A stretch of DNA of 64,000 bases from Dictyostelium discoideum (Eukaryota), in contig CM000154.2 in the NCBI GenBank assembly GCA_000004695.1, positions 1,152,001 through 1,216,000 of the forward strand, in the 5' to 3' direction. The position numbers and the translations under genes were made by a program. The notes below the pieces were generated by a model, which was not told the origin of the DNA, did no database searches, and saw only the letters and a program-made list of their open reading frames with translations. Shown in pieces: positions 42,946 to 63,999 of the stretch (position 1 is the stretch's first letter; each line of letters begins with the position of its first letter).

Positions 42946-45900
42946 TTAATCAGTAGTATCAGAGGCAGATTGGTAGAGTGGATTTTCAGCGGCAGATGCA
43001 GATTGTTCATAAAGTGGATTAGAGCTAACACCATCACCAAGGAAAGCGGCTTCACTAAAGAAAGTATCAGTTGGTGGTGCAGCTTTTCTTAATAATCTCC
43101 AAGCTGCGGCAGCAATTAAAGCAGTACCAGCGGCAGCACCAGCAATAGCACCTGTTAAAACGGTCTTATTGTCATTGGTTTGAGTGGTGGTTTCTGCTTC
43201 TTCAAATGTGACATCAACATAACCAGTTGCATTCATATGTGATTGAGCTCTAATGGCTGATGGTGCATTGTAACCTAAATCATCAACAAAGAGTTTAAGA
43301 CGATAGTTACCAGCAGTTACAGCATTGACAGTAATTGTTTGAATTGATTCATTGAGAGCAGATTTAGTATCGAGACATGAAATAGATGCAAGTGAAGTGT
43401 GGAGTTCACAATTTTGCATTCTTTTGAGTGAGATTTTAATATCTTCAAGTGATGCAACATTTTCATCATTTTCACCAACAATTGAAACTACAATTGAAAC
43501 ATTATTGCTTTTACCGGAATCTGGATCATCAAATTGAACATTTTCAACTGAAAGGGCTAACTTGGTAGTGGTGGAATAGGTTTTATTTCCGGCAAGAACA
43601 AATGGTGGAATGTTATATCTGTTAACGTTGATAACTGCTGTTAAGGTTGGTGAATCGAGACCACCATTATCTGTCATGAAAAATGGAATACGTACATAGC
43701 TATTACCAGATGAATCCGGGACAGGTGAATATACAACATAGTAATAGCCATCACTACTTTGCTCGACAGTTGTATGGTTACGATCAATAATAGAGCCTTT
43801 TAAGTCTGGTACAGTTTCATCTTTGGTATATAAAGTACCACGAAGTGCTGTGGTGACTGTTGAAAGTAATGGAGTGACTTGATCAACATCAACATCACTA
43901 CCAGTGTATTTGATTAAAACGGATGTATTGATATTCATATTGACAATATAGGTTGAGTCAAATAATACCTCACCATTATCTTTGGAAGTGTCATCTAAAA
44001 CCTTGTAACTAATTAATTGGATTGTTGGTGGTTGATTGACATGAATAACATTGACGGTGATAGTGTAAAGTTCAGAGTAAAGATCACCATCAAACAATTT
44101 GAATTCAATAAAATCGAAATCATTACCATATTCATTATGTGGTGGCATGTATGCAAAATTGTAAGAGGTTGAACCAGTTTGTGAATTTGGATAGGATGTA
44201 ATTTCTGTATCCATAGTACCTTCGCTACCCATGCTATGGGCAATTGATAAAGTACCTCTACCAGAGAATTTCAAAACTTGAATATTAACTTCAGAACCAC
44301 CATTTCCAACTTTACCTTGAACGTTTAATGGATAACGAGTGTTTTGTAAAACATCAATTACATCGGCTCCGGTGTAAACTGGTGGATTTCTTGGTCTGAC
44401 ACTAAAGGTAACTACGTCTGAATCTGATACAAGACCTTGTTGATCAACAACAGAGTATGGAATTGAATCTAATGGACCAATGTTATCAATGGTATTCCAA
44501 TTGGAAAGACCCGCATTTGGTTTGTATGAAAGAGCATCTAATTCGTAAGTTTCTTCACCAATTAATTTTGATGTAAGAACAACATTACCATTCAAAAGTT
44601 GACCATTGGCTGGGAGAGCATAAATCTTAGCTTTGAGGTCTGATGGCGATTCAATATCAGTACCATTGAATGTGAATGGTTCGGTTGTATCTTGATCGAG
44701 TTCAACTTGAATACCTTTTGTAGTTGGTGGAGTGTTAATATAGGTAAATTGGACAAAACCAGTTACATTACCAGTTGATAATACACCATATGGAGTGGTT
44801 AATTTAGAATCATCTTTACAGCTAATTATAAAGGAATCAGAGAAACTACTGAATGGAGTTGGTGAAATTTTAGATGCATCCAATAATTTGAAACTATAAC
44901 TATTGCTTGAGAGCGATTTTGGAAGGGTGGTAATTAATTCATTTTCTGAATCGTACATACTGATTTGCTTTGGAGCTGCTTGAACTGAACATAATACATT
45001 ATCACCATCAAAATCATAGGTAACCAATGTTTGAGTTTCACCAGCACCACTTTGAGATGTGAATGAGTAGGAATTGACTGTTAAAGTTGGTTTATGATTA
45101 ATTGGGTTAACAGTGACGGTTGTACTTTCAACTGATGACGTTTCTTTGAAAGTATCCATAACTTGATATGAATAACTATCAGTACCCTTGAAACCAGGAT
45201 TTGGTCTATAGTAATGAGTGAATGGTGCGTTTCCTTGAGTGGCAACGTTGTTACCATTTTGGACAGTAACTAAAATACCATTTGATGGTGGAGTGGTAAT
45301 AATAGCAATTAAATTATTAACATTTGGTGGATTGTAATCATCGATATCAGCATCGGTACCAGTTACAACATGTGCATCAGAATCTAAATAATCTTGATAA
45401 ACACTGTAATCTTGAATTTTAGTTACAACTGGTGCAACATTGGCACGATCTCCAACAATATTTACAACAACAGAGACAGTGTTTGATTCTAAACCTTCAT
45501 CATCAGTTGATGTGAATGAAATGGATGCATAATTTGAAATTGCGGAAGGTTCTCCATTGGTGAAACAAATAAGTTTATTGGCTTTTGTTGAAGAGTATGA
45601 GATACCAGAGAATTGATCTTTAAGAGAAATAATGGTGCTATCAGATGAACCAGAAGTACATGAACAATCATTAGTTGAACAGGTGTAGAAATTACCATTA
45701 TTACCATTTTTAATTGCAGTAATGGTGAATAATGCTTTTGTGGAATCTGAATCAGTTGATACCAAAGTTAATGAAACAGAACCTCTTGGAATTACTGAAA
45801 TTGGTGATGTTGATGATGAAACTGGTGCTACATTTGCATGTTGAATCTTGAAAGAAACTGAACAAGAAGCTTGTGAGAATGCATTTGATGTATCAATAGC

Positions 45901-48821
45901 TCTAAATTCTAATGTAACAGTGGCATCATTTTTTGGATTAACAGTTTGAGTGAAAATAACACTATCTCCAGTTGTAATTTTAGTTGATGAAGTAATAGAA
46001 GCACCTTTGTAAGTGAATGTACCGTAGGCAGTTAAATCAGTTGGTTTAGTAAATTGGAGGAATGGTGAGGCGTCTTCAAAATCAGTTGCAGTCATACTGA
46101 ATGTTGATTGGGTATTTAAGGTTGTTGTGATTGTTGATGAAATTGATGAACATTCTGGTAATTGATTTACTTTGTTGATGGTGATTGAAATTGTTGCATA
46201 GGTATTACTTTCGACACAACCATCAAAAGCAACAAATCTAATAGTATTTGAGGCTAAATAATTTTCGAACGGTGTATAGGTGAAAATTTCAGAGGCTGCA
46301 TAATAATTTGATTGTTGTTTTGAAACATCTTTACCATTGCTATCGGTAATAACACCAGCATTAGCTGTTAAGAATGTAGTGAATTTGAATTGTAAAATAT
46401 TTGCATCTGGATCAGTACCTGTTAATTTGAAAGTGGCTAATGAATTTTGATTGACAGAGAATGAACCTGAAGTTGCAACTGGTGGACGATTGTAATTGAT
46501 TGAAATATCAGTTTGACCATAACCCATTGCAGAAATTGTAGCAACTGGTGAAACAATTGTTGTACCTGATGGAAGTGATAATTTAAGACCATTGACAGTT
46601 TGTTGAGTTGATGAAGATGATGAAACTGTAACAGTTGATGGGACACTTGAAACAAATGAAGAACCAGTTGCAGTTGGATCAGATTTATAAACGATTTTGG
46701 ATAAAACATTCTTTACACCAGTATTAGCTTTAGCAGACCAATCACTAGCTGATGTTCCTGAAGCGGTAACAACACTACCAAAACCAGCTGAAGTGAGAGC
46801 TGAATTCCAATTAGTCATAGATGAGGCACCAAAACTAACGACCACTGGTACAATTGATTTTCCAATGAATTTATTTGTGAATGCAGTGATTTGTGCTGAA
46901 CTAGATGAATGATCACTATCGGTAATGATAACAATAACTTTGAATGAACCAGAATTCCAACCAACTGAAGCACTTGCAGCATCAGTAGCAGCCAAGAGTG
47001 AATTTCCATTAGAAGTGGTTGAATAAGTTGCTGGTTTATAAAGTCCAATGGCTGCAGCAATTGGACTACCCATAACTTGTGATGGACTAAATGAAATTGG
47101 TGATGGGGTGTAATCAGAGAAATAACCAATACCAAATTGAGCGGTTTCACAAATATTTTCAATGTTTGAAACAAATGTTGACATACCAGATTTAATATAA
47201 CCAAAGGCAGTAGTTGAAGCAAGATTGGCATCAACTAAAACGTAAACATCGAGATTATTAATTGGGTTTGGAATACTAACAATAGTTGGTACTTCATAGT
47301 TTGGTGTACTTGTGAGATAAACTTGAACTTTGGTTGGATTAACAAATGATGGATTACTGTATGAGATTGAGGTGTTGCTATTTGATAAATCTTTACAACT
47401 TTGAGATGATGAAATACTGCAATCGGCACCAGTCCAACCATTAGAACATAAACATTTACCATCACCATTAATACCACTATTTGGAACACCATTTACACAA
47501 GGTGGAACGGCAACACAATTTTCACCATAATAACCATCTTTACATTCAAAACATTTAGATGCTGGATCCCAATTATCAACACATTTACAAACACCACTCT
47601 CTGTATAACCACCATTACCACAATCTGGTTTAGCCACTAAAATTGTAAAAGAACGAACCGATGATGTTAAACCAGTTGAATCCGAGCAAACAAGAGAAAC
47701 AACATATGAACCGGTATTTGCAGTTGTTGGTGTCCATGTAATGGTTGTATTGGAGGTGGCACCTGTAACAGGAGTTTTGGTAGTGACACCAACTGGAAGA
47801 TTTGCAGTTTGAATGGTTGTTGATCTTCCAGACATAATAGTTTTACAAGAGAAAGTTAAACTTGTAGAGGCACCAATTGGGAATAATTTTGTATCACCAT
47901 CATCTGGAGTTGGTGGAGAGACAAAATCTGGTGGGTAATTACTAGTAGTACAAGTATCGATTGTGGTTGAACCACTGTTTGTGCAACCTTTACATTGAGA
48001 GTTTTGATTACATGCTGTACCAGCGTTTGAACATGTTGGATCACAAGTACCAGGTTCAGCAACTGATTGAAGAATGAAATCCACAACAATGTAGGCACCT
48101 CTTGAATCTAAAATATAAATTTGAGTTGAATAAAGACCAATTTGAGTTGGAAGGAAATAACAGTTACCTTTGGAATCAATTGTCATACCACTTGGTTGAG
48201 TCATTGTATAAACTTTTGAAAAGGAGAAAGTGAGTGCTGATGAGTCTGCATTTTGAACATTTTGATCGGATGCAATAACACGGAAGTTATTGTTTTTATT
48301 TGCAACTACTTGAACGATTGGAATCATACCAGATACTGGTGACCAATTTACCATTGACAATTCATTTTTATTATCGATTTGTACACTTGTTGTAATATTC
48401 CATGATGCATCTTTATTATTTAAAAGAGAACTAATTCTACAACAACTTGTGAAAATGGCGGTATATTCTCTAATTGTTCCAGAGTTTTGAGCTGGATAAG
48501 CTTTGGTTGTCGTGAAAGTACCTGTGAACCAATTATTTTTAACATCAAAATCTGTAACTGTAACAGAGACTGTTACTGATCCAACACCACTTCCAAAATT
48601 TAATGTACCAACATTAACTAAATTTCCAACCTTAATACTTGATGTTGATGAATAGAAAAAGGTTGTTCTATATGCAAAGTTTGATGTGAATTTGATGGTT
48701 CTATAATCTGTTGTTGGTTGCCAACTAATTGTACCAAAACGGAAATGTGATGCTTTGGAAAAAAAAAAATAATAAAAAAAAAATTTAAAATTAATATTTT
48801 TTTTTCACCTTTTCTGTTTAA

Positions 48822-48852
<31 letters not shown>

Positions 48853-48961
48853 TTTATTTGGGAAATAATAAAAAAAAAAAAAAAAAAAAACATTATTACT
48901 TACCATCAGTTAATATAAAAAGTGAAGCTATTAAAATAAATAGGTAAAATAATTTATTCAT
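42946..48961 (-). CDS. Sib-family adhesion receptor (similar to integrin beta; type I membrane protein with VWA-like region, EGF-like Cys repeats, TM with GxxxG-like motif, cytoplasmic tail with two NPxY motifs); 2 exons join(48904..48961,42946..48746)
   Basis: Signal peptide MNKLFYLFILIASLFILTD then donor G|GTAAGT. Extracellular 'CGNGGYTESGVCKCVDNWDPASKCFECKDGYYGENCVAVPPCVNGVPNSGINGDGKCLCSNGWTGADCS'. C-terminus 'TVLTGAIAGAAAGTALIAAAAWRLLRKAAPPTDTFFSEAAFLGDGVSSNPLYEQSASAAENPLYQSASDTTD'. About 1950 aa. Near-identical to the third copy, so probably one of sibA/sibC. Confidence 0.8.
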
Positions 48962-49736
48962 TTTGTTAAAAAATTTTATTAATTATTAATTTATTTATTT
49001 AATAAAGTTAAAATAAAATTTAAATTAAAAAAAATAAAAAAAATAAAAAAAATCCAGAAACTAAACCTGGCCAAAGAAATTTATTCTTTGTTTTTTAAAA
49101 ATACAGTGTGGTAATAATAAAATAGAAAATAGTATAAATGATTAAAAAAAACTTTTTTTTTTTTTTACTTTTTTTTTTTATTTTATTTTATTTTTTTTTT
49201 TTACTTTTTTCTATTTTATTTTATTTTATTTTTTTTTATTTTTTTTTATTTTTTTTTTTGAGTAACCATAAAAACGGATCTGTCAAATTTTTGTTAAAAA
49301 GTGTCAATTCGTTGGAAAAAAATCTAGATTTCGTGAATATTTTAGATTTGCGCAAAAAAAAAATTGGTCCAAACAGTTTAAATTAATTTATTTTTTTTTT
49401 AATTTTTTTTTCATTTTTTTTTCATTTTTTTTTCATTTTTTTCATTTTTTTTTCATTTTTTTTTATTTTTTTCATTTTTTAAAAGATATTTTTTTTTTTT
49501 TTTTAAAAATAAAACACTTTGCCAAATGATGGGCGAAAATAAAAAATTTAAAATAAAAAAAAAAAAAAGGCTAAAATTGGATTGTGAATTTTGTGATATG
49601 GAACCATTTAAGTACTTTTTTGTGATATTTAACAACCTTTTACAAAAAAAAAAATAAAAAAAAAAATAAATATTAAAATAGTTTTAAATGAAGATAAAAG
49701 GGAATTTCATTGTTGTTATCAATTTTTTTTTTTTTT

Positions 49737-49741
49737 TAAAA

Positions 49742-49780
<39 letters not shown>

Positions 49781-49852
49781 ATATATAAATAAATAAATAA
49801 ATAAATAAATAGATAAATAAATAAATAAATAAATAAATAAAATTTTTTTCAA
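49737..49852. repeat. (AAAT)n microsatellite (about 28 units, two interruptions) followed by (A)70
   Basis: aaataaataaat... run at 49737..49852, then an uninterrupted A tract at 49885..49960. Lies between Sib genes 1 and 2. Confidence 0.9.
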
Positions 49853-49886
49853 AATAAATAAATTAAATAAAATAAATTAAAATTTG

Positions 49887-49962
<76 letters not shown>

Positions 49963-50241
49963 AGGTCTGGTCAATTTCGCCTCATTCAATTCTTTGGAAT
50001 ATTTTTTTTTTTTTTTTATTTTTTTAAAATAATTTTAGTGTTTTTTTTACACTGTTATTATATTGATATTATAAATTATTATTTAAATAAATATAAATAT
50101 TTTATTATTATTATTTTATAATAATTAATATTTATTTAAATTAATTTATTAAATAAAAAATAAAAAATAAAAAATAAAATAATAATAATTTATTTTTTAA
50201 TTTATAAAATTATTTGTTTTTTTATTTATTTTTTTTTTTTT

Positions 50242-53200
50242 TTAATCATCGGCACCTTCATAAATTCTTGATACATATGATGTTTCAGATTTTTCGTAAA
50301 TTGGACTACTTGAAACATCACCCATAAAAGCACCTTCATCAAAGAAAGTATCAGTTGGTGGGGATGATCTTTTTATCATTTTCCATAAACCAATTACAAG
50401 TAATGCTGCACCAGCAGAAGCACCAGCAATTGCGCCTGATAAAACTGTTTTATTGTCGGTATTTTGGGTGGTAGCAATTGGGTCATTAATTATAATATTC
50501 ACATATCCAGTTGCATTTAAATGTGATTCAGCTCTAACTGTTGATGGTGCACTATAGCCCAAATCATCAATGAATAATTTTAGACGATATTTTCCACTAA
50601 TTGAACCAATGACTGAGATTGTTGATATTGATGCATTAAGAGATTTCTTTGATCCAATACATGTGATAAGGGCAAGATTTAGATTTGGGTTACATTTGGG
50701 AGTGGCTTGAGTAAAGGATAATTTAATAATGGAAAGTGGTAAAACTTCATCACCATCATTATCATCAACAATTGATACAATTAATGAAATATTATTATTA
50801 ACTGAATCTGGATCATCCAATGTTATATTTGTAATTGAAATGGTTAGATTAACTTTACCTACAAAAGTGTTTGAATTTGATCCAATGTAGATTTTTGGTT
50901 GAAGGTTAACAGAGTTTACATTTATAATTACAGTGGAAGTTTGTGACACAACTCCTTTTTCATCGATAACATTAAATGGAACACGAGCATAATTATCACC
51001 AGTTGTACCTTTAGTTGGTATGAAAATTACATACCAATAGCCATCTTCATTTAGTGGAATTAATTGAGATGTATGGTTGATTTCTCTTCCTAAATAGTCT
51101 GAGGAGTTATCATCAAATGAATAAATTAAACCACGAAGTGGAAGATTTGAAACTAAAGCAACTAAAGGGACTGTTTGGTTATCTATATCACTACCATAAA
51201 TTTTAATTAGTACAGAATCATTAACATTCATATTAATTGTTGAACCATCAATTTGAATTTCTTTTTCAAATTGATTTAAAATTCTATAACTTATTAATTC
51301 AGTGGCTGGTGGTTGATTCACATGAATAACATTAACTGTAATATTATAAATTTTAGAGATAATATCATTATCAAATAAAATAAATTGAATTTGATCAAAG
51401 TTTGAACCAAATTGATTTCTTGGTGGATTATATGCAAAATTGTAGGATGTTGAACCAAGTTGTTGGCTTGGGTACTCTGTTATTAGTTTATCAAAGAAAC
51501 CTTCTTTACCCATACTATGGGAAATTGATAAATTACCTCTACCACTGAAACTTAAAACTCGTATACTAACAGATAAACCGCCTCCACCAAGTTCTCCCTC
51601 AATTGTTAATGGGAAACGAGTATTTTGTAATACACTAATATCAGAGTCACCAAGGTAAATTGGTGGGTTTCTAGATCTAACTTGGAATGATATTGTTGAA
51701 GAAGGAGATAAAAGACCTTGTGGATCGACGATTGAGTATGAAATTCTATCCAATGGACCTAAATGATCCACTGTATCCCAATTTGATTGACCTGGTAAAG
51801 GTGTATATGTTAATTCATCCAAACCAAAAGTATTGTCTCCACCAATCAATTCTTTTGTCAAAACCACATTGCTATCAATGGATTTGGAAAGTTTACCATT
51901 GATTGGTAGAGAGTACAATAAAACTTTTAATAGCTTTTCATTGGATTCAATATCAGAACCTTCAAAAGAAAATGCAATGAATGAATCTTGTGAAAGTTTA
52001 ACTGAACTAATATTAGTTTTTGGTGGAGTGTTTATGTAATAGTATTGAACATTACCTATTACATCACCTGTTGACAATACACCTTTTGGTGTTGTTTTTT
52101 CACTATCATCAACACAGTTAATGCTAAAGGTACTTAAAACATTCGAAAATGGGGTTGGTGTAATGATTGAAGGGTCCAACAATTTAAAACTATAGGCATT
52201 ATTTGGTAACACCATTGGCACTGATTTTATTTGCACACCTTTGTCATCATACATAAGGATTTGTTTTGGAAGGGATATTACTGAGCAAATTACATTATCA
52301 CCATCTTGGTCACTGGTATTTAAAGTTTCTATAACCCCATCACCACTCTCTGATGTAAATTTATAAACATCAATCAAAACATTTGGTTTATGATTAATTG
52401 GTTTGATAGTAATAGTTGTAGATTCAATTGATGATTTTGCATTAAATGTGTCAATAACTTGATATGAATAACTATCAGTACCAGCGTACCCTGGATTTGG
52501 TCTATAATAATGAGTGAAAGGTGCATTTCCTTGAATGGCTATAGAACTACCATTTTGGACAGTAACTAAAATACCATTCGATGGTGGATTTGTAATTATA
52601 GCAATTAAATTATTAGCATTTTGTGGATTGTAATCATCGATATCAGCATCGGTACCAGTTACAACATGTGCATCAGAATCTAAATAATCTTGATAAACAC
52701 TGTAATCTTGAATTTTATTTACGACTGGCGCAACATTAGTACGATAACCAACAATATTAACTATTACAGTGGCCAAATTTGATTCTAAACCTTCATCATC
52801 AGTTGATGTGAATGATATGAATGCATAGTTTGGAACTGCAGAAGGTTCTGAATTGGTGAAACAAATTGGAAGACTGGCTTGATTTTTGGCGTATTGAATC
52901 TGTGAATACTTTGTATTGTCAGTAATATCGATACGATCATTTGATCCAGCAACACAAGAACAGCTATTATCAGTGCATGAATAGAATGTACCTGTTTTAC
53001 CAGCATTAACCTTTTTTATGGTAAATATAGCAGATTTTGAATCTATATCAGTTGATAATAAAGATAGGGGATTCCCGATACTTCTTGGAATAGTAACAGA
53101 TGTTCCATCATTTGAAATTGGTGCTTCATTCGTATGTGTAATATTAATAGTTTGGGTACATAAATTTGAAAATAAACCAGATGAATCTTTTGATTTGAAA

Positions 53201-56185
53201 GTCAAAGGAACTAAAAGATTTAATGGATTCTTTGTTTGTTTGAAAAGTATTTTCACACTCTTTTTAATTATTGTATCTATAGTTACTTTAGCACCAATAT
53301 ATGTTAGTTGTCCATATTGTTCTAAGGATGCTAGCTCTGAGCTCACAATAAACTGTGCATTAAGAATTAATAGTTGATCATCATCTTCAAAATCAGTAGC
53401 AGTAAATGAAAAATCAACCGTTTTTTCAAATTCAGATATAACAATAGCTGAACTACATTCAGGTGGTTGATTCACCTTATTGATAGAGAATGAAACTTTT
53501 GCACTTGAATCACTAGTTAAACAACCATCATCAGCAATAAAACTAATATACAATGATTTCAAATAGTTTTTATAAGGTGAAAATGTAAATTTTTCACTTC
53601 CTGCGTATAATTCATCCTTTTGAGTTGAAACATCAATACCTTTACTTGTTTTAATTAAACCTTCTGTACTCGATAAAAATGATGTAAATTTAAAGGTCAA
53701 AATATTTCTATCTGGATCAGAGCCTTCCAATTGAAATATAGCATCAGAGTTTTGATTACAAGAAATTCCAAATGGATTTGGTGTTGGTGGATGATTGTAG
53801 TTTGTTTTAATATCGATACAACCATATCCTATAGTACACACTCTAAGTGATGGATTTATACTACTATTGTAATTGATTGGTAAAGATAAAGAAAGACCAG
53901 ACAAAGTTTTGACAACTTCAATATCTGCATCTATAGGTAAATTTTCTGGAATTGATTTTAAAAATGCAAGACCACCAGAGTTATCATTAACTTTAAATAT
54001 AATATTCTGTAACACTCCATTACCTAATACTGAGCTTGATGTTTCTTTGAATGCTGTCTTTACAAAATTTTTCCAACCTTGAGCATCAGATGATAATTTA
54101 TAAGCTCCAAAACCACATTGATATAATGTTGAATTCCAATTACTTAGAGAAACATTAATTCCAATAACTACAGGAGCAATTGACTTTTCAATGAATGCAT
54201 TTTTAAATTCATCTATTTCTGTTTGGATGGGACTTAAAGGAAGATCTGTTCTTGGTATAATGATCATAGACTTAAAGGCATTCGTTCTCCAACCTAGTGG
54301 AGTCTTTGCTGCTTTGGTTGCAGCCGATAAAGATTTTCCTGTAATTGTATGATTATAGCCACTCCATTTTTTATTTTCTAGTGATGTTACAATAGAGTCT
54401 GATGGAATTTTAGCTAAATCAGCGAATAAACCATTTTCATCAATAATGCCCAACCCAAATGATACACTTTCAGGAGATAGTTCCAAAATTTTCGTTTTGG
54501 CGTCATTCAATTGAGATAGAATATTGTTGAATTCATTTTGAGTGTTTTGATTAATATCAATCAAAAAGTAAACATCAATTAATTTATTTTTCTCTGGAAT
54601 TTTAATATTGACTTGTATTTGATACTTTTGATTATTTGCCAAATATACTTGAATGCCTACTGGGTTAATATATGATTGCTCCATAATTGAAGAACTAACA
54701 ACACCACTTTTTAATGACCCACATGATTGACTGTTTGAAATTGAACAATCATCGCCAATCCAACCATTGTTACAATAGCATTTACCATCACCCAAAATTC
54801 CACTATTGGAAACACCATTGACACAAAGTGGCACAGCAATACACTTTTCTCCATAATATCCTTTTGAACAATCTAAACAATCACTTTCAGAGGTAAAATT
54901 CTTTGGACAAACACAAATACCTTTATCTCTAAATCCCCCATTTGAACAATCAGGTTTTTCTTTTAGAAAAAATTTAAAAATTAATAAAATTAAATTTATA
55001 AATAAAATAATTAAAAAAAGAAAACTTACTAATAATAATTTCTATTGAAGTTGTAATTTTTATCAAAGAGTCGGTACATACTATATATTTAACATATGTT
55101 CCATAATCTTGAAAAGATGTCGGGAACCATAATAAATTTATTGTTGATTTTGGTCCAATTTCTAAAATTTTTGTTATGAAACCAATTGGAAAACCGACAG
55201 GTTGAATAGTTGTGTTTAAACCAATTGCATCTGTTGTACAAGAAACATTAAAACCTTCATTTTGCTCACCAATAACAAATGTTTGTGTTTGATTGGGCTT
55301 TGGAGTTGGTGGGTAAATAAAAATAGGCTTTGTTGATAAACAAGCGTCTTGTGTTTTATTATATACTAAATTGCCACAATTAATACAGTCACTGTTTTTT
55401 GTACAAATTTCACCACTGTTATTGCACTGATGATGACAAAACCCATTTTGTATCTCTGATTGGAGGATAAAGTCAAGAGTTATATACGCACCATTTTTAT
55501 CTGTAATTATTACCTTTGCGCAATATAAACCAACAGATGATGGCATGAAATATACCATACCAGTGTTTTTATCAAGTGTCATCCCATCAGGCTTTGCTTC
55601 GCCAAATGTAAACACAAGATTAGAATACTCTCCAGGTCTGAGATGTTGATCAGAGGCAGGGATATTGAAATTATTATTTCTACCATATGTTACTGGATAG
55701 ATAGGTACCATTCCTGATACTGGTGACCAATTAATTTTATCAAGTGAATTACTATTATCAATTTGTACCAATGATTTTATTGTAAAATCACCATCTTTTT
55801 CATTCAAAAGAGTACTGATTCTACAGCACAACGAATAGAAGGCAGTATAGTTAGCAGTTTTTCCTACTTCCAATGTTGGGTATGTGTGGGAAAATACTGA
55901 AGTGCCAGTAAACCAATCATCTTTAGAGTCAACCGTTGTTAGTATTAATTGATAAGTACTCACAACATTATCTCCAAAATTGAAAGAAATTTTTATAAAA
56001 TCATTTTTTTGGGGCAAATTGGAGAACCAGGCACTGGTTCTGAAGCCAAGGTCAAGAGTAAATTGTATTTCATTGTATTGAGTAGTTGGTTGCCATTTAA
56101 ATGTACCAAACCTAATATGAGAAGCTTTTATTATTAAAAAAATTATAATAATATAAGAATTTTTGTTTTTTTTTTTTGATTTTTA

Positions 56186-56231
<46 letters not shown>

Positions 56232-56299
56232 ATTTTACCGTTTGAGAAAGTTATCAAAAAATAAATAAAAAATAATAATTTTACAACAAAACTAAACAT
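50242..56299 (-). CDS. Divergent Sib-family paralogue (possibly sibB-like) with degenerate NPxY motifs; 3 exons join(56239..56299,55030..56112,50242..54959)
   Basis: Signal peptide [20 protein letters not shown] then donor G|GTAAAA. Exon 2 [18 protein letters not shown]... Donor A|GTAAGT at 55029; acceptor (A)AAG at 54960-61; all frame-checked. Same architecture and the conserved block '[37 protein letters not shown]'. Tail '[44 protein letters not shown]' has SPIY/SRIY where NPLY is expected. Confidence 0.75.
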
Positions 56300-57104
56300 T
56301 TTTTAATAAAAAGTAATAAAATAAAAGATTTTGTTTTTTAAAATCTTTATTTCTTTTTTATTAAAAATTTTTTTTTTTTTTTTTAACTATTATTAGTTTT
56401 TAATTTATTTGTTTGTTTTTTATTTTTTTATTGTATTATTAAAACTTGATATTAAGAAAAATGAAAATTTTAAAAAAAAAATTTAATAAATTAAAATTAA
56501 TACAATTTATTTATTTTAATTCATTTATTTTAATTTTTTTTTTTTTTTTTTAAAAAACTAGATATTTTATCAATCCAAAATAAAGAAACTTTGAATTCTT
56601 TTTATTATAATTATATTCTATCCAATTACTCTTTGTTAGTTTAATTTAATTTTAAACATTAAAAACAATCCAGCCAACCAAATTTTTAAGTAAAAAAAAA
56701 AAAAAAAAAAAATATTTTCCAATTTTTTTTTCAAAATATCCATTTTTTTTTGAGGTTGGCTGGATATAAAAATTTAATTAAAGTGGTGAGAAGTGATTTT
56801 ATGCGGTGTTGGCCACTTTTTTTATTTTCCACGAGTTTCAAAGAAAAAAAAAAAATAAAAATGAGCCGCGTAGAAAATGGTTTTAGTTGAAAAAAATCTA
56901 GATTTTAGAATTTTTTTTTAAATACAGACTTAATTAAATTTAGTTTGAAATAATTTTTTCTATTCTTTGATATTTCAAAAGTGAATTGAAATATACAAAA
57001 ATAAATAAAAATAGAAAAAGAGTAACAAAGTGACTTTTTTTTTAGTTTTTTTTTTTTTTTGATTAAATTAATTTAAGTATTTAATTGTCTTAAAATGAGT
57101 TTGC

Positions 57105-57156
<52 letters not shown>

Positions 57157-57764
57157 ATAATAATAATAATAATAAATTCCCTATCCGACTAATGGAATCT
57201 GATTTATTTTTTATTTTTTTTTTATTTTTTTTTTTTAAGTATACTATAACCCTTTAATGAAAAACAAACAAATATTTTTTTTTTTTATATTAAAAATGAT
57301 TTTTTTTTTTTTTTTTTTTATTTATGATATATAAAAACAGAAATACCCAAAGTGATAAAATATAAAAAAAATTTATTAATCCTTTCTGTTTTTTTAATTT
57401 TTTTTTTTTTCAAATTTTATTTTCGAGGAACATATAAAAAAAAAATCTGAAAGATTACTAAGAGAATCTGATTTATTTTTGATTTTTTTTCGTCGAAATG
57501 AGCGGCGTGTTTATACTAAATCAAAAGAAAAAATGGAAATTTTTTTTTTTTTAAAACTCAATTTTTACCTTCCAAAAAATGAAATAATAATAATAATAAA
57601 ATCTAAACAATCTTTCATATTTTTTAATCAAAAACTAAAAAAAAAATAAAATTTAACACCATATTGAGGGAATCAATTTTAAAAAAAAAAGTTTGAGATG
57701 AATGAAATTATTAAATTTTATTAAAAAAAAGATTTAATTATTGAGAAATATTTAATAAGAAACT

Positions 57765-60700
57765 TTAGTCAGTATTATCAGAGGCAGATTGATAAAGTGG
57801 ATTTTCAGCGGCAGATGCAGATTGTTCGTAAAGTGGATTGGCATTAACACCGTCACCAAGGAAAGCGGCTTCACTAAAGAAAGTATCAGTTGGTGGTGCA
57901 GCTTTTCTTAATAATTTCCAAGCAGCAGCAGCAATTAAAGCAGTACCAGCGGCAGCACCAGCAATAGCACCTGTTAAAACAGTCTTATTATTAGTGGTTT
58001 GTGTGGTAGCTTCTGGTGCATTAACTTTAACATCAACATAACCAGTTGCATTTAAATGTGATTGAGCTCTAATGGCTGATGGTGCATTGTAACCTAAATC
58101 ATCAACAAAGAGTTTAAGACGATAGTCACCAGCAGTTGATGCGATAACAGAAATTGAAACAATTGAACTGTTGAGTGGTTTCTTTGGTCCAATACATGTG
58201 ATTGAAGCTAAAGTTTGATGATATTCACACATTGGTGATTGAGTGAATGAAAGTTTAATATCTTTGAGTGATGCAACTTTGTCATCTTTTTGACCAACTA
58301 TTGAAACAACAATTGAAACATTGTTAGTTGTAGAATCTGGATCATCAAATTGTACACCCATTACAGAGGCAGTTAAATTGGTTTGAGTTGTGTAGTTTTT
58401 GTTACCAATGATTACAAATGGTGCAATATTGACAGTATTAACATTGATTAACACTCCGACGATTGGTGAATTAAGACCGCCATTGTCAGTCATAATAAAT
58501 GTAATACGTGCATAACTTTCACCAGAGGTTTTTTTTGATGGTACAAATACGACATAGTAAAAACCATCAGCATTTTGTTCAACATTTGAAGAGTTACGAG
58601 TGATTGGCGCACCTGATGAATTTGAAGCAGTTGGATTATAAGCGTAAAGCGAACCTCGAAGTGGGAAATTTGGAATCATTGAAATTAATGGAGTAACTTG
58701 ATCAACATCAATATCATTACCAGAATATTTAATTAGGACAGTGGTATTAATATTCATATTAATTAATGAAGTATTTTCAAATAAGACTTCACTTGAAACG
58801 CCATCTAAAATCTTGTAACTAACTAATTCGATTGTTGGTGGTTGGTTGACATGAATAACATTAACAGTGACTGTATAAAGTTCAGAGTAAAGATCACCAT
58901 CAAAGAGTTTGAAGTAAATGAAATCAAAATCATTACCATATTTATTACGTGGTGGCATGTATGCATAGTTGTATGAAGTTGAACCAGATTGTTGATTTGG
59001 ATATGATGTAATTTCTGAATCCATAGTACCTTCGCTACCCATATTGTGAGCGATACTTAAAGTACCATTGTTAGTGAATCCAATAACTTGGATATTAACT
59101 TCAGAACCACCACCACCAATTCTACTAGTGATAGTTAATGGATAACGAGTGTTTTGTAAAACATCAATTACTCTTGCACCAGTATAAACTGGTGGATTTC
59201 TTGGTCTAACACTAAAGTAAACGATATCAGAATCTGATGTAAGACCTTGTTGATCAATGACAGTGTATGAAATTGAATCGAGTGGACTTTGTTGATCAAT
59301 GGTATTCCAATTTGAAAGACCTGCATTTGGTTTGTATGAAAGTGCATTAAGGTTGTATGTTTCAGAAGCAATATTTGTTGTAGTAAGAGCAACACCAGTA
59401 GCGTTAATTAAAAGTTGACCATTGATTGGTAATGAAAGGATTTTAACTTTAATATCATCTTTTGGTGTTTCAATATCAGAACCATTAAAAGTGAATACTT
59501 TGACTGTATCTTGATCAAGTTGAACAGTGCCACCTTGAGTAGTTGGTGGAGTATTAATATAAGTATATTGAACATTAGCAGTTACTACACCAGTTGATAA
59601 TGTACCAAATGGAATAGTCTTTGTAGTAACATCAGTACATTTGACAGCGAATGAACTTGAAACACTTGTGAATGGAGTTGGAGTAATTTTTGATGGATCT
59701 AATAACTTGAAACTGTATGAAGTACCAGAGAGAACAGTTGGAACTGATTCAATTAAATTACCATCTGAATCATACATACCAATTTGACTTGGAATGGAAA
59801 CAACTGAACAAATAACACTATCACCATCTGGATCACTGGTGACCAAGTCTTGAGTTTCACCATCACCACTTTGAGATGTGAAAGAATATGAACTGACAAC
59901 AACACTTGGCTTGTGATTAATTGGGTTAACAGTGACGGTGGTACTTTCAATTGATGACCCAGCTTTGAAAGTGTCAACAACTTGATATGAATAACTATCA
60001 GTACCCTTGAAACCAGGATTTGGTCTATAGTAATGAGTGAATGGAGCTTTTCCTTGAGTGGCAGCAATGCTACCATTTTGAAGAGTAACTAAAATACCAT
60101 TGGATGGTGGAGTGGTAATTATAGCAATTAAATTATTAACATTTGGTGGATTGTAATCATCGATATCAGCATCGGTACCAGTTACAACATGTGCATCAGA
60201 ATCTAAATAATCTTGATAAACACTGTAACCTTGAATTTTAGTTACAACTGGTGCAACATTAGTACGATTACCAACAATATTAACGACTACATTGACAGAA
60301 TCTGATTCTAAACCTTGGTTATCAGTTGATGTGAATGAAATGGATGCATAATTTGAAATTGCGGAAGGTTCTCCATTGGTGAAACAAATAAGTTTGTTGG
60401 CTACTTTGTTGGTATAAGAAATTGATGTGTAGGTTGTAGTTGTAGAAATAGAGGTATATATGTTGGTTTGAGTAGAATTACATGTACAATCATTGGTTGA
60501 ACAAGTGTAGAAATCACCCTTTGCGCCCTTGTTAACGGATTTAATGGTGAATTTTGCAGATGTTGAATCTGAATCAGTTGATACCAAAGTTAATGAAACA
60601 GAACCTCTTGGAATTACTGAAATTGGTGATGTTGATGATGAAACTGGTTTAATATTTGTATGAACAAGTTTAACAGTTAATGTACAAGTACTTGTAGAGA

Positions 60701-63502
60701 TTGCACCAACACTATCGACAGCTTGGAATGATACTGGAACATCAATAGCATTGGTTGGATTAACGGTTTGGGTAAATGTGATTTCAGAACTAGTTGGAAT
60801 TTTAGATGTTGAAGTAACAGCAACACCACCAAAAGTTAATGTACCATATGCAGTTAAATCGGTTGGACTAGTGAATTGAATGAATGGTGTGGCATCTTCA
60901 AAATCGGAAGCACTCAATACAAATTTGTTAGCAACATTCAAAGTTGGTGAAATTGTTTTTTGTTGACAAGTTGGTAATTGATTGACTTTGTTGATGGTGA
61001 TTGAAACGGTTGCAGATGTAGTACTATTAAGACAACCATCATTGGCAACGAAACTAACACTGATTGGTAATAAATAGTTAATGGCTGGAGTGAAGGTGAA
61101 AGTCTCGGTTGAATCGTAATATTTACTTTTTTGGGTTGAAACATCTTTATTATTACTATCGGTAATAACACCAACGTCACTTGTTAAGAAGGTAGTGAAA
61201 GCAAAGGTTAAAATATTGAAATCTGGATCAGTACCTGTTAATTTAAAGGTAGCAAATGAATTTTGATTTACAGAGAATGCAGTTCCGGTTGGAGTTGGTG
61301 GACGATTGTAATTGATTGAAAAATCAGTTTGGCCAAAACCAATTGCTGAAACTGATGCAACTGGTGATACGATTGAGGTTGCTGATGGTTTGGTTAAAAC
61401 AAGACCACTAACGGTTTTAACGGTATCAGCGGTGGAAGATACAGCGACATCTGATGGTGTGGATTTAACGAATGAAGCGCCATTGGTTGTATTATCGGTT
61501 TTATAAACAACATTTGATAAAACACTCTTTAAACCAGCTACAGCTTTAGCAGAGATATCGATGGATGTAGCAGCAGAGACAGTGCTATAACCAAAATCAG
61601 CGGTTGAAATTGCTGAATTCCAATTTGGAATTGATGAGGCACCAAAACCAACAACAACTGGCGCAATTGAATTTGAAATGTAAGTATTGACGAAATTAGT
61701 TATAGCAGCAGAGTTTGAAGAATGATCTTTATCGGTAAGTACAACAATTGCTTTAAAGGAGCCAGAGTTCCAACCATTTGAGTTTGATGCAGCATTTGTT
61801 GCACCCAAAAGTGAATTACCACTTGAGGTTGAAGTATAAGATGAGACAGCATAACCATTGATAGTATTAACGATATTGCTACCAATGATTGAACCTGGAG
61901 CAAAATTGAAACCAGATGAAGAGGCATCACTGAAATAACCAATACCAAATTGAGTTGTTTCGCAAATACTCTTTGAAACCTCAGTGACAAATGTTGAAAT
62001 ACTTGATTGAACAACACCAAAGAGAGTTGATGAGGCGACATTGACATCGACTAAAACGAAAACGTCAATTTTTGTTAATTTTTGTGGAATGTTTAATGAT
62101 GTAGTTAAAGCGAAATCACTTTCGATATATAGTTGAACTTTGGTTGGATTGACAAAGAATGATGGAACAGAGGTGGAGAGGAGAATAGAATTTTTCAAAT
62201 CTTTACAACTTTGAGATAATGGAACATCACATTTATCACCACTGTAACCATTGATACACATACATTTACCATCACCTAAAATACCTTCATTTGGAATACC
62301 TTTATCGCATGGTGGGGTTGGATCACAATTTTGACCATAATAACCGGTACTACAATCGAAACAATTTGAAGTTGGATCCCATTTATCACCATCACATTTA
62401 CATTTACCAGTTGAAGGATCTTTATGACCATTACCACATTCTGGTTTAGCAATGAAAATTGTAAATGAACGAGATGATGATGTTAAACCATTTGAATCAT
62501 AACAAAAGATTGAAGTTACATAAACACCAACATTTGCAGCGACTGGAGTCCATGAAAGAATATTTTTAACTGTACCTTGACTTGAAGTTCCTTCTGCAAT
62601 GGCTGCACCAGCTGGTACATTAGCAGCTTGGATACCGACAGTTCTAGTTGTATAATCTGATTTACATGAGAGTGTGATACTATTTGGTTGACCAACAGTG
62701 AATGGAATTAATTGATTATCTTGTGGGGTTGGTGAAACAAAGTATGGTGGATAATTAGTTGTTGAACAAGTATTGCTAGTTGTTGAACCAGCGTTGGCAC
62801 AATTTTTACATTCTGAATTACCATTACATGTTGCACCACCATTGGAACAACTTGGATCACATTTACCTGGTTCAGTAATTGATTCTAAAATGAAATCGAC
62901 TACGGCATATGCTGGTGGAACGGCATCATCTGTGATATAAATTTGAGTAGAATAAAGACCAACTGAAGTTGGTAAGAAAAAAACATGACCAGTACTATTG
63001 ATTTTCATTCCAGATGGTTGGGTCATTGGATAAACGGTTGAGAAAGAGAATGAAAGTTTATCATCAACATTTGGGTCACTTGCAATAACACGGAAGTTAT
63101 TATTTTTGTTGGCAATAACTTGGACAATTGGTAACATACCTGATACTGGTGAATGATTTACTGATGGCCAATTTTTGTTATCAAGATAAACACTACTAGT
63201 AATGTTCCAATCAGCATCTTTATTATTGAGAAGTGTACTAATTCTACAACATGATGTAAACATGGCAAGATATTGTTTTGAGTTGTTTGGAGTTAAGGCA
63301 GTATAGGTTTTAGTAAAGATAAATTGACCAAAGAACCAATCATTCTTGGTATCAAAACTGGTCACAGATGCCCTAACTGATGTAGATGAACCATCACCAA
63401 AAGTTAAAGTACCAAGAGTAATTTTTTCTCCAATTACAATTGATGATGAGCTTGTTTTATAAAATGTAGTTCTAAATGCGAAATTTGTTGTAAATTTAAT
63501 AA

Positions 63503-63551
<49 letters not shown>

Positions 63552-63999
63552 AAAAAGAAAAAATTAGTAATTGAATAAAATAAATAAATAATAAGTTACT
63601 TACGTTATGTGCTGTTGTGGGACTCCATGAGATACTACCAAATCTGAAATGGGTGGCTAAAATAAAAAATTAAAAAAAAAAAAAAAATTGAAAAATAAAT
63701 AAAAAAAATGAAAATCGAAAAAAGGTCAGAAAAGTTTTAAAAAGTAATCGATTTTTAGTATTATTATTTTTATATTATTATTATTATTTATTAATATTTA
63801 TTATTATTATTTATTTATTATTTATGTATCTATCCATTTATTTTATTTATTTATTTTAATTTTATTATTTTATTATTATTATTATTTTTATTGTTATTTT
63901 AGTTTTTAATTTTTATTTTAATTTTTAATTTTAGATCTTACCTTCAGTGACACAAAATATTGCAAGTAATACAAATAAAAATTTGAATAAATTATTCAT
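57765..63999 (-). CDS. Sib-family adhesion receptor, near-duplicate of the 42946..48961 gene (sibA/sibC-like); 3 exons join(63942..63999,63604..63656,57765..63503)
   Basis: Signal peptide MNNLFKFLFVLLAIFCVTE with donor G|GTAAGA. A 53-nt exon ATHFRFGSISWSPTTAHN with donor |GTAAGT, a 100-nt poly-T intron, then the main exon. C-terminus '...RKAAPPTDTFFSEAAFLGDGVNANPLYEQSASAAENPLYQSASDNTD'. The tail is about 95% nt-identical to gene 1. The 5' end lies 1 nt from the window edge. Confidence 0.8.

Follow-up and report, generated by a model that had tools for sequence, protein, structure and literature searches.

Does the tandem array of integrin-beta-like (Sib) genes in the reference genome of Dictyostelium discoideum stand in its native form, and by what events has it evolved? 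The question is raised by a stretch of 64,000 nucleotides (nt) from the AX4 reference (GCA_000004695.1, contig CM000154.2, positions 1,152,001 to 1,216,000 of the forward strand; hereafter the window, in whose own numbering positions are given unless another assembly is named). An initial annotation, made from the sequence of the window, had placed three head-to-tail adhesion-receptor genes at 42946-63999 and had proposed that the locus evolved by unequal crossing-over. This interval was confirmed to be the sibC-sibD-sibE cluster of AX4 on chromosome 5, the genes and the family of which were already known, the family having been published in 2006. It very probably contains three intact Sib genes, in an array that evolves by tandem duplication, gene conversion and unequal crossing-over. 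The three genes themselves are not new; what is modestly new is a reference array that is one unit short, with a sibE that is chimeric and partly mis-annotated.

Reference sibE as a fusion of two paralogues

A fourth array gene between sibD and sibE, here called sibX, first became apparent from the locus tags of newer assemblies. The order E-X-D-C was found in a divergent D. discoideum isolate (ACTFIR, L001), in the chromosome-level assembly GCA_054883475.1 (ACTFIT, CM142511.1; L002, L003), in D. citrinum (L004) and D. dimigraforme (L005) and, by the order of locus tags RB653_008433-8436, in D. firmibasis. Four genes were present in every assembly examined other than the window, that is, in a near-isogenic strain, three other isolates of the D. 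discoideum group, D. citrinum, D. dimigraforme and D. firmibasis; the ancestral array of the D. discoideum group is one of four genes, E-X-D-C. The X proteins (KAM9947153.1 and KAM9969648.1) comprise 1953-1955 amino acids (aa) and are annotated merely as 'hypothetical protein'. X is 78% identical to SibC and likewise 78% identical to reference SibE, being a mosaic of the two: the 5' half resembles SibC (identity of 66-100% in bins of 50 residues, three of them at 100%), and beyond residue 1000 or so X hardly differs from SibE.

The near-isogenic assembly, GCA_054883475.1, is colinear with window positions 59018-32939 (99.66% identity over 26 kb, with 19 mismatches) and encodes SibB and SibC proteins identical to those of the reference. 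A three-way nucleotide alignment of the window with the AX2-like E and X genes gave 2058 sites that distinguish E from X. Between 63991 and 59900, all 1281 such sites in the window were of E type, and from 59240 on, every informative coding site was of X type; farther into the 3' flank, below about 57350, 12 sites in runs of no more than five went to E or to neither. When the wild strain was compared, the 3' flank of window sibE aligned with the flank of X and not with that of E. Within sibE, only two differences were private to the window: a single-nucleotide polymorphism at 63372, which exchanges R and S at residue 82, and a poly(A) run in an intron whose length differs by 8 nt. At the protein level, window SibE departed from AX2-like SibE at 21 residues, which without exception fall within alignment columns 1474-1806, and matched X throughout from column 1255; over columns 1255-1473 the E and X proteins do not differ.

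Reference 'sibE' is an E5'/X3' fusion, with a single switch inside a tract of 660 bp that is identical in sibE and sibX, and the reference array is one repeat unit short. The missing unit, of about 7.46 kb, comprises the 3' end of E, the spacer that separates it from X, and the 5' half of X, which is the SibC-like part. The switch from E to X is clean and occurs at one point, and therefore a single crossover (or an assembly collapse) made reference sibE. A crossover within the identical tract would have left the first 4.1 kb of sibE continuous with the last 1.5 kb of sibX, and the near-identity of the E and X 3' halves, maintained in each species by gene conversion, would have supplied the tract for unequal exchange. 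The initial proposal of unequal crossing-over is borne out by these observations, the window being one unit short of a near-isogenic assembly through a single clean switch.

The opposite polarity, in which a recent duplication in AX2 and other strains made X from C and E while AX4 retained the ancestral three genes, draws on the mosaic structure of X, which with its SibC-like 5' and SibE-like 3' halves looks superficially recombinant. It is nonetheless very improbable, given that D. firmibasis, D. dimigraforme and D. citrinum each have an X orthologue flanked by E and D, that the 5' half of X forms its own branch with dimigraforme 1452, and that the synonymous divergence of X and C (see below) is not that of a recent split. 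Moreover, window sibE itself bears X-type sequence and the X 3' flank, and therefore X existed before the reference form.

The D. citrinum annotation merges neighbouring Sib genes, at least an X-like and a D-like one, in a single model of 3882 aa (L004 17504-26231), which is probably why these genes gave no separate matches in the protein searches. Homologue searches seeded with SibE and X (word-seeded) missed all SibD-like and SibA-like proteins, so that absence from those searches is uninformative.

Gene conversion and branching order

Neighbour-joining trees built for each gene segment gave different topologies along the array. In the 5' half, the E orthologues formed one clade and X was the sister of C. 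In the 3' half, X and E of one species grouped together, as was seen in D. discoideum, D. dimigraforme and D. firmibasis. Across the final 3 kb, E and X differed at 0-16 positions per 300 nt in the AX2-like assembly and at 1-25 in the wild strain, against approximately 80-200 in the 5' half.

A second homogenised region is a block of 435 nt encoding a Big_9 Ig-like repeat (Table 1), which is 87-92% identical at the nucleotide level among all three window genes, compared with 60-73% gene-wide. Within it, identical residues shared the same codon at 83-94% of positions, compared with 60-72% elsewhere. The SibD block was 85% and 82% identical to its paralogues (85% being to SibC) but only 69% identical to the D. 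firmibasis orthologue; outside the block the pattern was reversed, SibD being 46% identical to paralogues and 57% to the orthologue. The same block had been homogenised independently in D. firmibasis.

Recurrent gene conversion among the genes of the array is supported by these patterns. Purifying selection on talin-binding and repeat residues, acting alone, could in principle account for the similarity of both the tail region and the block, since the protein sequence of both is conserved throughout the family, SibB and the SibA-like protein (described below) among them, and the NPxY tail has a known binding function. Selection on residues alone would, however, leave the shared synonymous codons of the block, its greater similarity to paralogues than to the orthologue in SibD and likewise in D. 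firmibasis, and the clustering by species of X and E 3' halves without explanation; it is an unlikely alternative to conversion.

The initial annotation had supposed that the tandem copies would allow the duplications to be dated. Rough Nei-Gojobori estimates of synonymous divergence (dS) put D at 0.89 from either C or E; the value was 0.59 between C and E, and 0.38 between C and X, which gives an order of branching of D, then E, then C/X. The relative order could thus be recovered, but absolute dates are unreliable because of gene conversion.

The tgrB/C locus of Dictyostelium (PMC12745789) resembles the sib array in its tandem paralogues, intralocus recombination, gene conversion and change of copy number between close strains. 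It differs in that the sib array is far more stable, the order E-X-D-C being common to four species; sib copy number was seen to vary in just two cases, through the fusion in AX4 and through degradation of sibD in D. dimigraforme.

Gene models, protein architecture and function

The window is about 20% G+C overall and 28-36% in coding parts, which is usual for D. discoideum; it contains no letter N, and a scan for tRNA genes across its whole length found none. All open reading frames (ORFs) of at least 150 codons in the interval 42946-63999 lie on the minus strand, and only two plus-strand ORFs of at least 80 aa occur there, in keeping with the initial view that nearly all of these are antisense shadows. 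The edges of the interval are exact: the stop codon of sibC ends at 42946, and the ATG of sibE begins with the A at 63999. Gene models were made by reading the 5' regions and joining exons at GT...AG sites, and gave uninterrupted frames for all three genes (Table 1). The first exons, of 58-61 nt, each encode a hydrophobic leader of 19-20 aa, so the signal peptide does reside in a micro-exon, as had been annotated; sibE has a second micro-exon of 53 nt beyond it. Each gene has its own ATG, leader exon and stop codon, and the spacers between them are AT-rich, 1.3-1.5 kb long and without detectable homology to one another when compared; therefore, these are three genes of about 6 kb, not one gene, and no internal stop interrupts them. 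They are presumably transcribed separately.

Table 1. Positions of the sib genes and of the segments discussed in the text
Feature	Position	Strand	Details
sibC	42946..48961	minus	exon 1 48961-48904, intron 48753-48903, exon 2 48752-42946 including stop; 1954 aa
sibD	50242..56299	minus	exons 56299-56239, 56124-55030 and 54959-50242; 1957 aa
sibE, AX4 reference form	57765..63999	minus	exons 63999-63942, 63656-63604 (53 nt) and 63503-57765; 1949 aa in model
E-derived 5' part of reference sibE	59900..63999	minus	1281 E-type sites
Crossover tract, identical in sibE and sibX	59240..59900	minus	about 660 bp; last E-specific site 59900, first X-specific site 59240
X-derived 3' part of reference sibE, with X 3' flank	56900..59240	minus	about 1.5 kb coding, including transmembrane segment and tail
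Homogenised 435-nt block, Big_9 Ig-like repeat	sibC 45126..45561; sibD 52422-52857; sibE 59945-60380	minus	
SibC transmembrane segment and tail	42949..43161	minus	transmembrane segment VLTGAIAGAAAGTALIAAAAW, 43099-43161; two NPLY in tail; read from translation
SibE transmembrane segment and tail	57768-57980	minus	equivalent of SibC segment; transmembrane segment 57918-57980
SibD transmembrane segment and tail	~50245-50445	minus	equivalent of SibC segment
sibD-sibC spacer	48962..50241	none	AT-rich; long poly(T) and (TTTA)n runs
sibE-sibD spacer	56300-57764	none	AT-rich
sibX	L003 10001-16085 (GCA_054883475.1 CM142511.1); L001 10001-16061		between sibE and sibD

The sibD-sibC spacer contains a poly(T) run of about 75 nt at 49890-49965, (TTTA)n at 49760-49870 and tandem ATGAAAAAAA units at 49400-49470. 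A poly(T) run of about 55 nt lies near 57105-57160 in the sibE-sibD spacer, whose simple-repeat runs differ from those of the other. An assembly-contig boundary between sibD and sibE, guessed from accession numbering, was abandoned as unsound.

The gene 1 model was an exact match to SIBC_DICDI (Q54JA5 / XP_636831, 'Integrin beta-like protein C') of AX4 by exact-sequence look-up, and gene 2 likewise to SIBD_DICDI (Q54JA4 / DDB_G0288197, 'Integrin beta-like protein D'). Gene 3 fell in the cluster of SIBE_DICDI (Q54JA3, P0029), the last 1912 of its 1949 residues, from 'IIKFTT' to the end, being identical to AX4 SibE. All three proteins matched the Sib-specific Pfam families PF24907, PF24908, PF24909, PF24910 and PF24619 far above cut-offs (E 1e-12 to 1e-111); vWA_SIBA-E scored 142-372 bits and Ig_SibA 169-199 bits, where the Pfam cut-offs are 27. 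SIBA-E_N, Ig_SIBA-E_2nd and Ig_SIBA-E_3rd were matched in those ORFs that contain these domains, and weaker matches to VWA, teneurin-type EGF, Big_9 and Cadherin_4 were present in all three. The assignment to the Sib family was therefore upheld, the best matches being Sib proteins throughout. Over the whole gene, C and E are 65% identical in amino acids and 73% in nucleotides, and D is 48% and 60% identical to either, which agrees with the description of the middle copy as the more diverged.

The AX4 annotation of SibE differs from the model at the N-terminus only, where it reads MNNLFKFLFVLLAIFCPPISDLVVSHGVPQQHIT. This annotated N-terminus, giving ...AIFCPPISDLVVSHGVPQQHIT, corresponds to the 53-nt exon 2 read out of frame (window 63604-63999). 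The in-frame model, with a GTAAGA donor at 63941 and the 53-nt exon, gives ...AIFCVTEATHFRFGSISWSPTTAHN, and the resulting sequence (…CVTEATHFRFGSISWSPTTAHN) restores the motif HFRFG.ISW.PTT that is kept in all paralogues; the same N-terminus is found in annotation P0026 of assembly GCA_054883475.1. On these reading frames, the first two exons of AX4 reference sibE are judged to be mis-annotated.

The proteins share one order of parts: signal peptide, Sib N-terminal domain, two Ig-like domains, EGF-like Cys repeats, a VWA-like domain, bacterial-type Ig/cadherin-like repeats, a Gly-rich transmembrane domain (TMD) and a short cytosolic tail. The Cys repeats, VWA-like stretch and long beta-rich repeats of the initial annotation were supported by Pfam, the last as Ig/cadherin-like. 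An N-terminal 'WQPTT' motif, ascribed to all three, occurs in sibC and sibD, while sibE has WSPTT. The TMD, as read from the translations about 50 aa from the C-terminus, is VL(T/S)GAIAGA(A/S)AG..., or GxxxGxxxG, and so the GxxxG-like segment was correctly recognised. Together, the N-terminal leader and the single Gly-rich segment near the C-terminus predict a type I topology. The cytosolic tails of SibC and SibE each contain two NPLY motifs, as the shared architecture had been described, whereas the SibD tail contains no NPxY in translation, SPIY and SRIY standing there instead; the tail core PPTDTFF...AF is kept in all three. Nucleotide identity of C and E over the TMD and tail region was measured at 92-93%, somewhat below the initial estimate of about 95%, and their homology runs approximately 36-40 bp beyond the stop codon.

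The remaining member of the family in D. discoideum, P0051 (1926 aa), formed a separate divergent cluster found by a SibD-seeded search. It is encoded elsewhere on the chromosome and is 34-40% identical to SibC, SibD and SibE; its orthologues occupy a distant locus in four species, separated in D. firmibasis by some 365 gene numbers. The tail of P0051 is …NPMYEESGRSAINPLYEASSESL, and its TMD alone has five glycines, the number published for SibA, compared with three in SibC, SibE, X and SibB, and four in SibD. By elimination and by this TMD, P0051 is the candidate for SibA. SibA has the same domain order and Sib-specific Pfam families as the window proteins, and shares its two-NPxY tail with SibC and SibE. 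The suggestion that the outer pair of genes reflected a SibA/SibC relationship did not hold, as the outer genes are sibC and sibE and none of the three is sibA; the remark that SibA and SibC are close relatives does not bear on this pair, and the SibA-like P0051 is just 39-40% identical to SibC and SibE. In the literature consulted, SibA and SibC are described as co-expressed and functionally redundant, and are not called closest in sequence. The possibility that X was SibA, misplaced in the AX4 assembly, was rejected, as X has three TMD glycines, its cluster contains no AX4 sequence, and the five-glycine cluster has its own distant locus. According to PMC4510845, SibB-E retain the five glycines of the SibA TMD, which is at odds with the counts of three or four read here.

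Sib proteins are the main candidate receptors of the amoeba for adhesion to substrate and particles (Cornillon 2006, as cited in PMC9197732, PMC3279395 and PMC4510845). As far as these citing texts go, knockouts of sibA or sibC lose adhesion in part, and the Gly-rich TMD makes surface targeting dependent on the TM9 protein Phg1A; a review citing Cornillon 2006 further states that all five Sib tails bind talin A, that the membrane-proximal NPxY of SibA is essential, and that of the Sib proteins SibA and SibC alone are abundant in vegetative cells. Talin tension is reported to require SibA. By extension from SibA and SibC to the sibC-sibD-sibE copies, the ectodomain would contact the substrate or particle, delivery to the surface would depend on Phg1A through the Gly-rich TMD, and the membrane-proximal NPxY would bind talin A and so couple the receptor to actin. 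The NPxY-less tail of SibD suggests altered talin coupling or a different mode of binding.

To judge from its sequence, SibD has lost both NPxY motifs yet remains under purifying selection and is not a pseudogene, because its frame is intact, its allelic dN/dS (ratio of nonsynonymous to synonymous divergence) is 0.25 against a wild isolate (0.32 for SibE), and it is intact in D. firmibasis. As the most diverged copy, at 48% amino acid identity, with neither NPxY motif and no place among the Sib proteins that the review calls abundant, it might be taken for a decaying pseudogene or non-adhesive relic, the more so as the D. dimigraforme counterpart seems truncated and split, with residues 1-557 missing. 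This is unlikely for D. discoideum, however, where splice sites are conserved around a frame of 1957 codons, all Sib domains are recognised, and wild D. discoideum and cf. discoideum isolates also carry intact copies. In D. dimigraforme, the region between the X-like and C-like genes (L005 18208-25871) matches SibD from residue 558 onward only, and is annotated as two gene models, of 1224 aa and 418 aa, with no Pfam matches on record; sibD may be decaying in that species.

Features in common with metazoan integrin beta chains are, according to the literature, those of a type I adhesion receptor: outside the cell a VWA-type domain and Cys repeats of EGF type, then a TMD rich in small residues, and an NPxY tail to which the FERM domain of talin binds. 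The Integrin_beta family of Pfam (PF00362) gave no match at E <= 0.01 in the three window proteins; X scored 19.4 bits and the SibA-like protein 18.5 bits, below the cut-off of 24.8 and across only the first 50-90 of 248 profile positions (<40%). A Sib homologue of Polysphondylium violaceum was borderline, at 24.9 bits. The presumed metal-ion-dependent adhesion site (MIDAS), at the aligned start of the VWA-like domain, reads DANLAS in SibC, DINQNT in SibD and DVNVAS in SibE, that is, D-x-N-x-x-S/T and not DxSxS. The Sib ectodomain, of about 1850 aa, differs from that of integrin beta in being dominated by bacterial-type Ig/cadherin-like repeats. The literature describes Dictyostelium as lacking canonical integrins. 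By analogy, the window proteins would work like integrin beta chains but lie outside that family. They have no alpha partner known to us.

The membrane-proximal 1000 aa of the Sib proteins match PF17963 and PF17803, families of bacterial Big_9 and Cadherin_4 surface proteins. This likeness is restricted to the repeats, the bacterial proteins having no Sib N-terminal domain, VWA_SIBA-E domain, or TMD with NPxY tail. A Vicinamibacterales Ig-like protein was a distant match to the repeat region (E 2e-24), and an EGF-rich protein of the sponge Oscarella lobularis carries a SIBA-E_N domain. With the P. violaceum match (P0039), the O. lobularis and Vicinamibacterales matches (P0043 and P0042) hint at a deeper origin of Sib domains.

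The three-gene state of AX4

Whether AX4 cells truly have three genes depends on whether the crossover occurred in the genome or in its assembly, and the evidence, which comes from assemblies and a protein collection, leans slightly towards a real deletion. No AX4 protein or fragment occurred in the X cluster or among the matches to X, although a collapsed assembly would be expected to leave an orphan contig with the unique 3.6-kb 5' ORF of X. The switch from E to X is perfectly clean, with no trace of a mixed consensus. The reciprocal X5'/E3' chimera was absent from the protein collection by exact look-up, a result that is uninformative if the gene model differs. The competing explanation holds that AX4 cells carry E-X-D-C and that the Sanger assembly of 2005 made a false join of E and X where their 3' halves are nearly identical. 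The few differences between these halves and the 660-bp tract do constitute a repeat prone to collapse; in addition, the near-isogenic strain keeps all four genes, and Holland et al. 2025 remark that Dictyostelium genomes are hard to assemble. Mis-assembly is accordingly a serious possibility, if somewhat the less probable. It is marginally favoured that AX4, and perhaps the whole AX3 lineage including DH1-10, physically lacks the sixth Sib gene and expresses an E/X fusion in place of native sibE.

Besides the closeness of that choice, other considerations weigh against the account given here. Splice sites of the micro-exons were placed by conservation of frame, motifs of paralogues and agreement with existing annotations. 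Adhesion and talin binding belong to SibA, SibC and Sib tails in the literature, and are carried over to the window copies by analogy. For SibD, a mechanism centred on NPxY may fail, as it has no such motif and yet all five tails are reported to bind talin. The near-isogenic assembly is most likely, from its near-identity and N50 of 5.3 Mb, the AX2-214 assembly of Holland et al. 2025. Neither sib copy number nor a sixth Sib gene is mentioned in the main text of that paper or in the searchable literature.

The AX4 reference, on which most laboratories rely for primers, knockouts, mapping of RNA-seq and proteomics, shows a three-gene cluster with an E/X chimera, while AX2 and natural isolates have a fourth, undescribed paralogue in the array. 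Reads or peptides of sibX that are mapped to AX4 will be mis-assigned to sibC or sibE, and differences in adhesion between strains could partly trace to the sib locus. If AX4 does lack sibX, the Sib family would have six members rather than five, and laboratory lineages would differ in their repertoire of adhesion receptors. If the whole AX3 lineage lacks it, all Sib genetics, which was done in DH1-10 of that lineage, would have been done in a strain without sibX, and published conclusions on redundancy, such as those from the failed sibA/sibC double knockout, would be specific to that strain. As an evolutionary case, the sib locus is small and clean: gene conversion makes an identical tract, which later mediates an unequal crossover.

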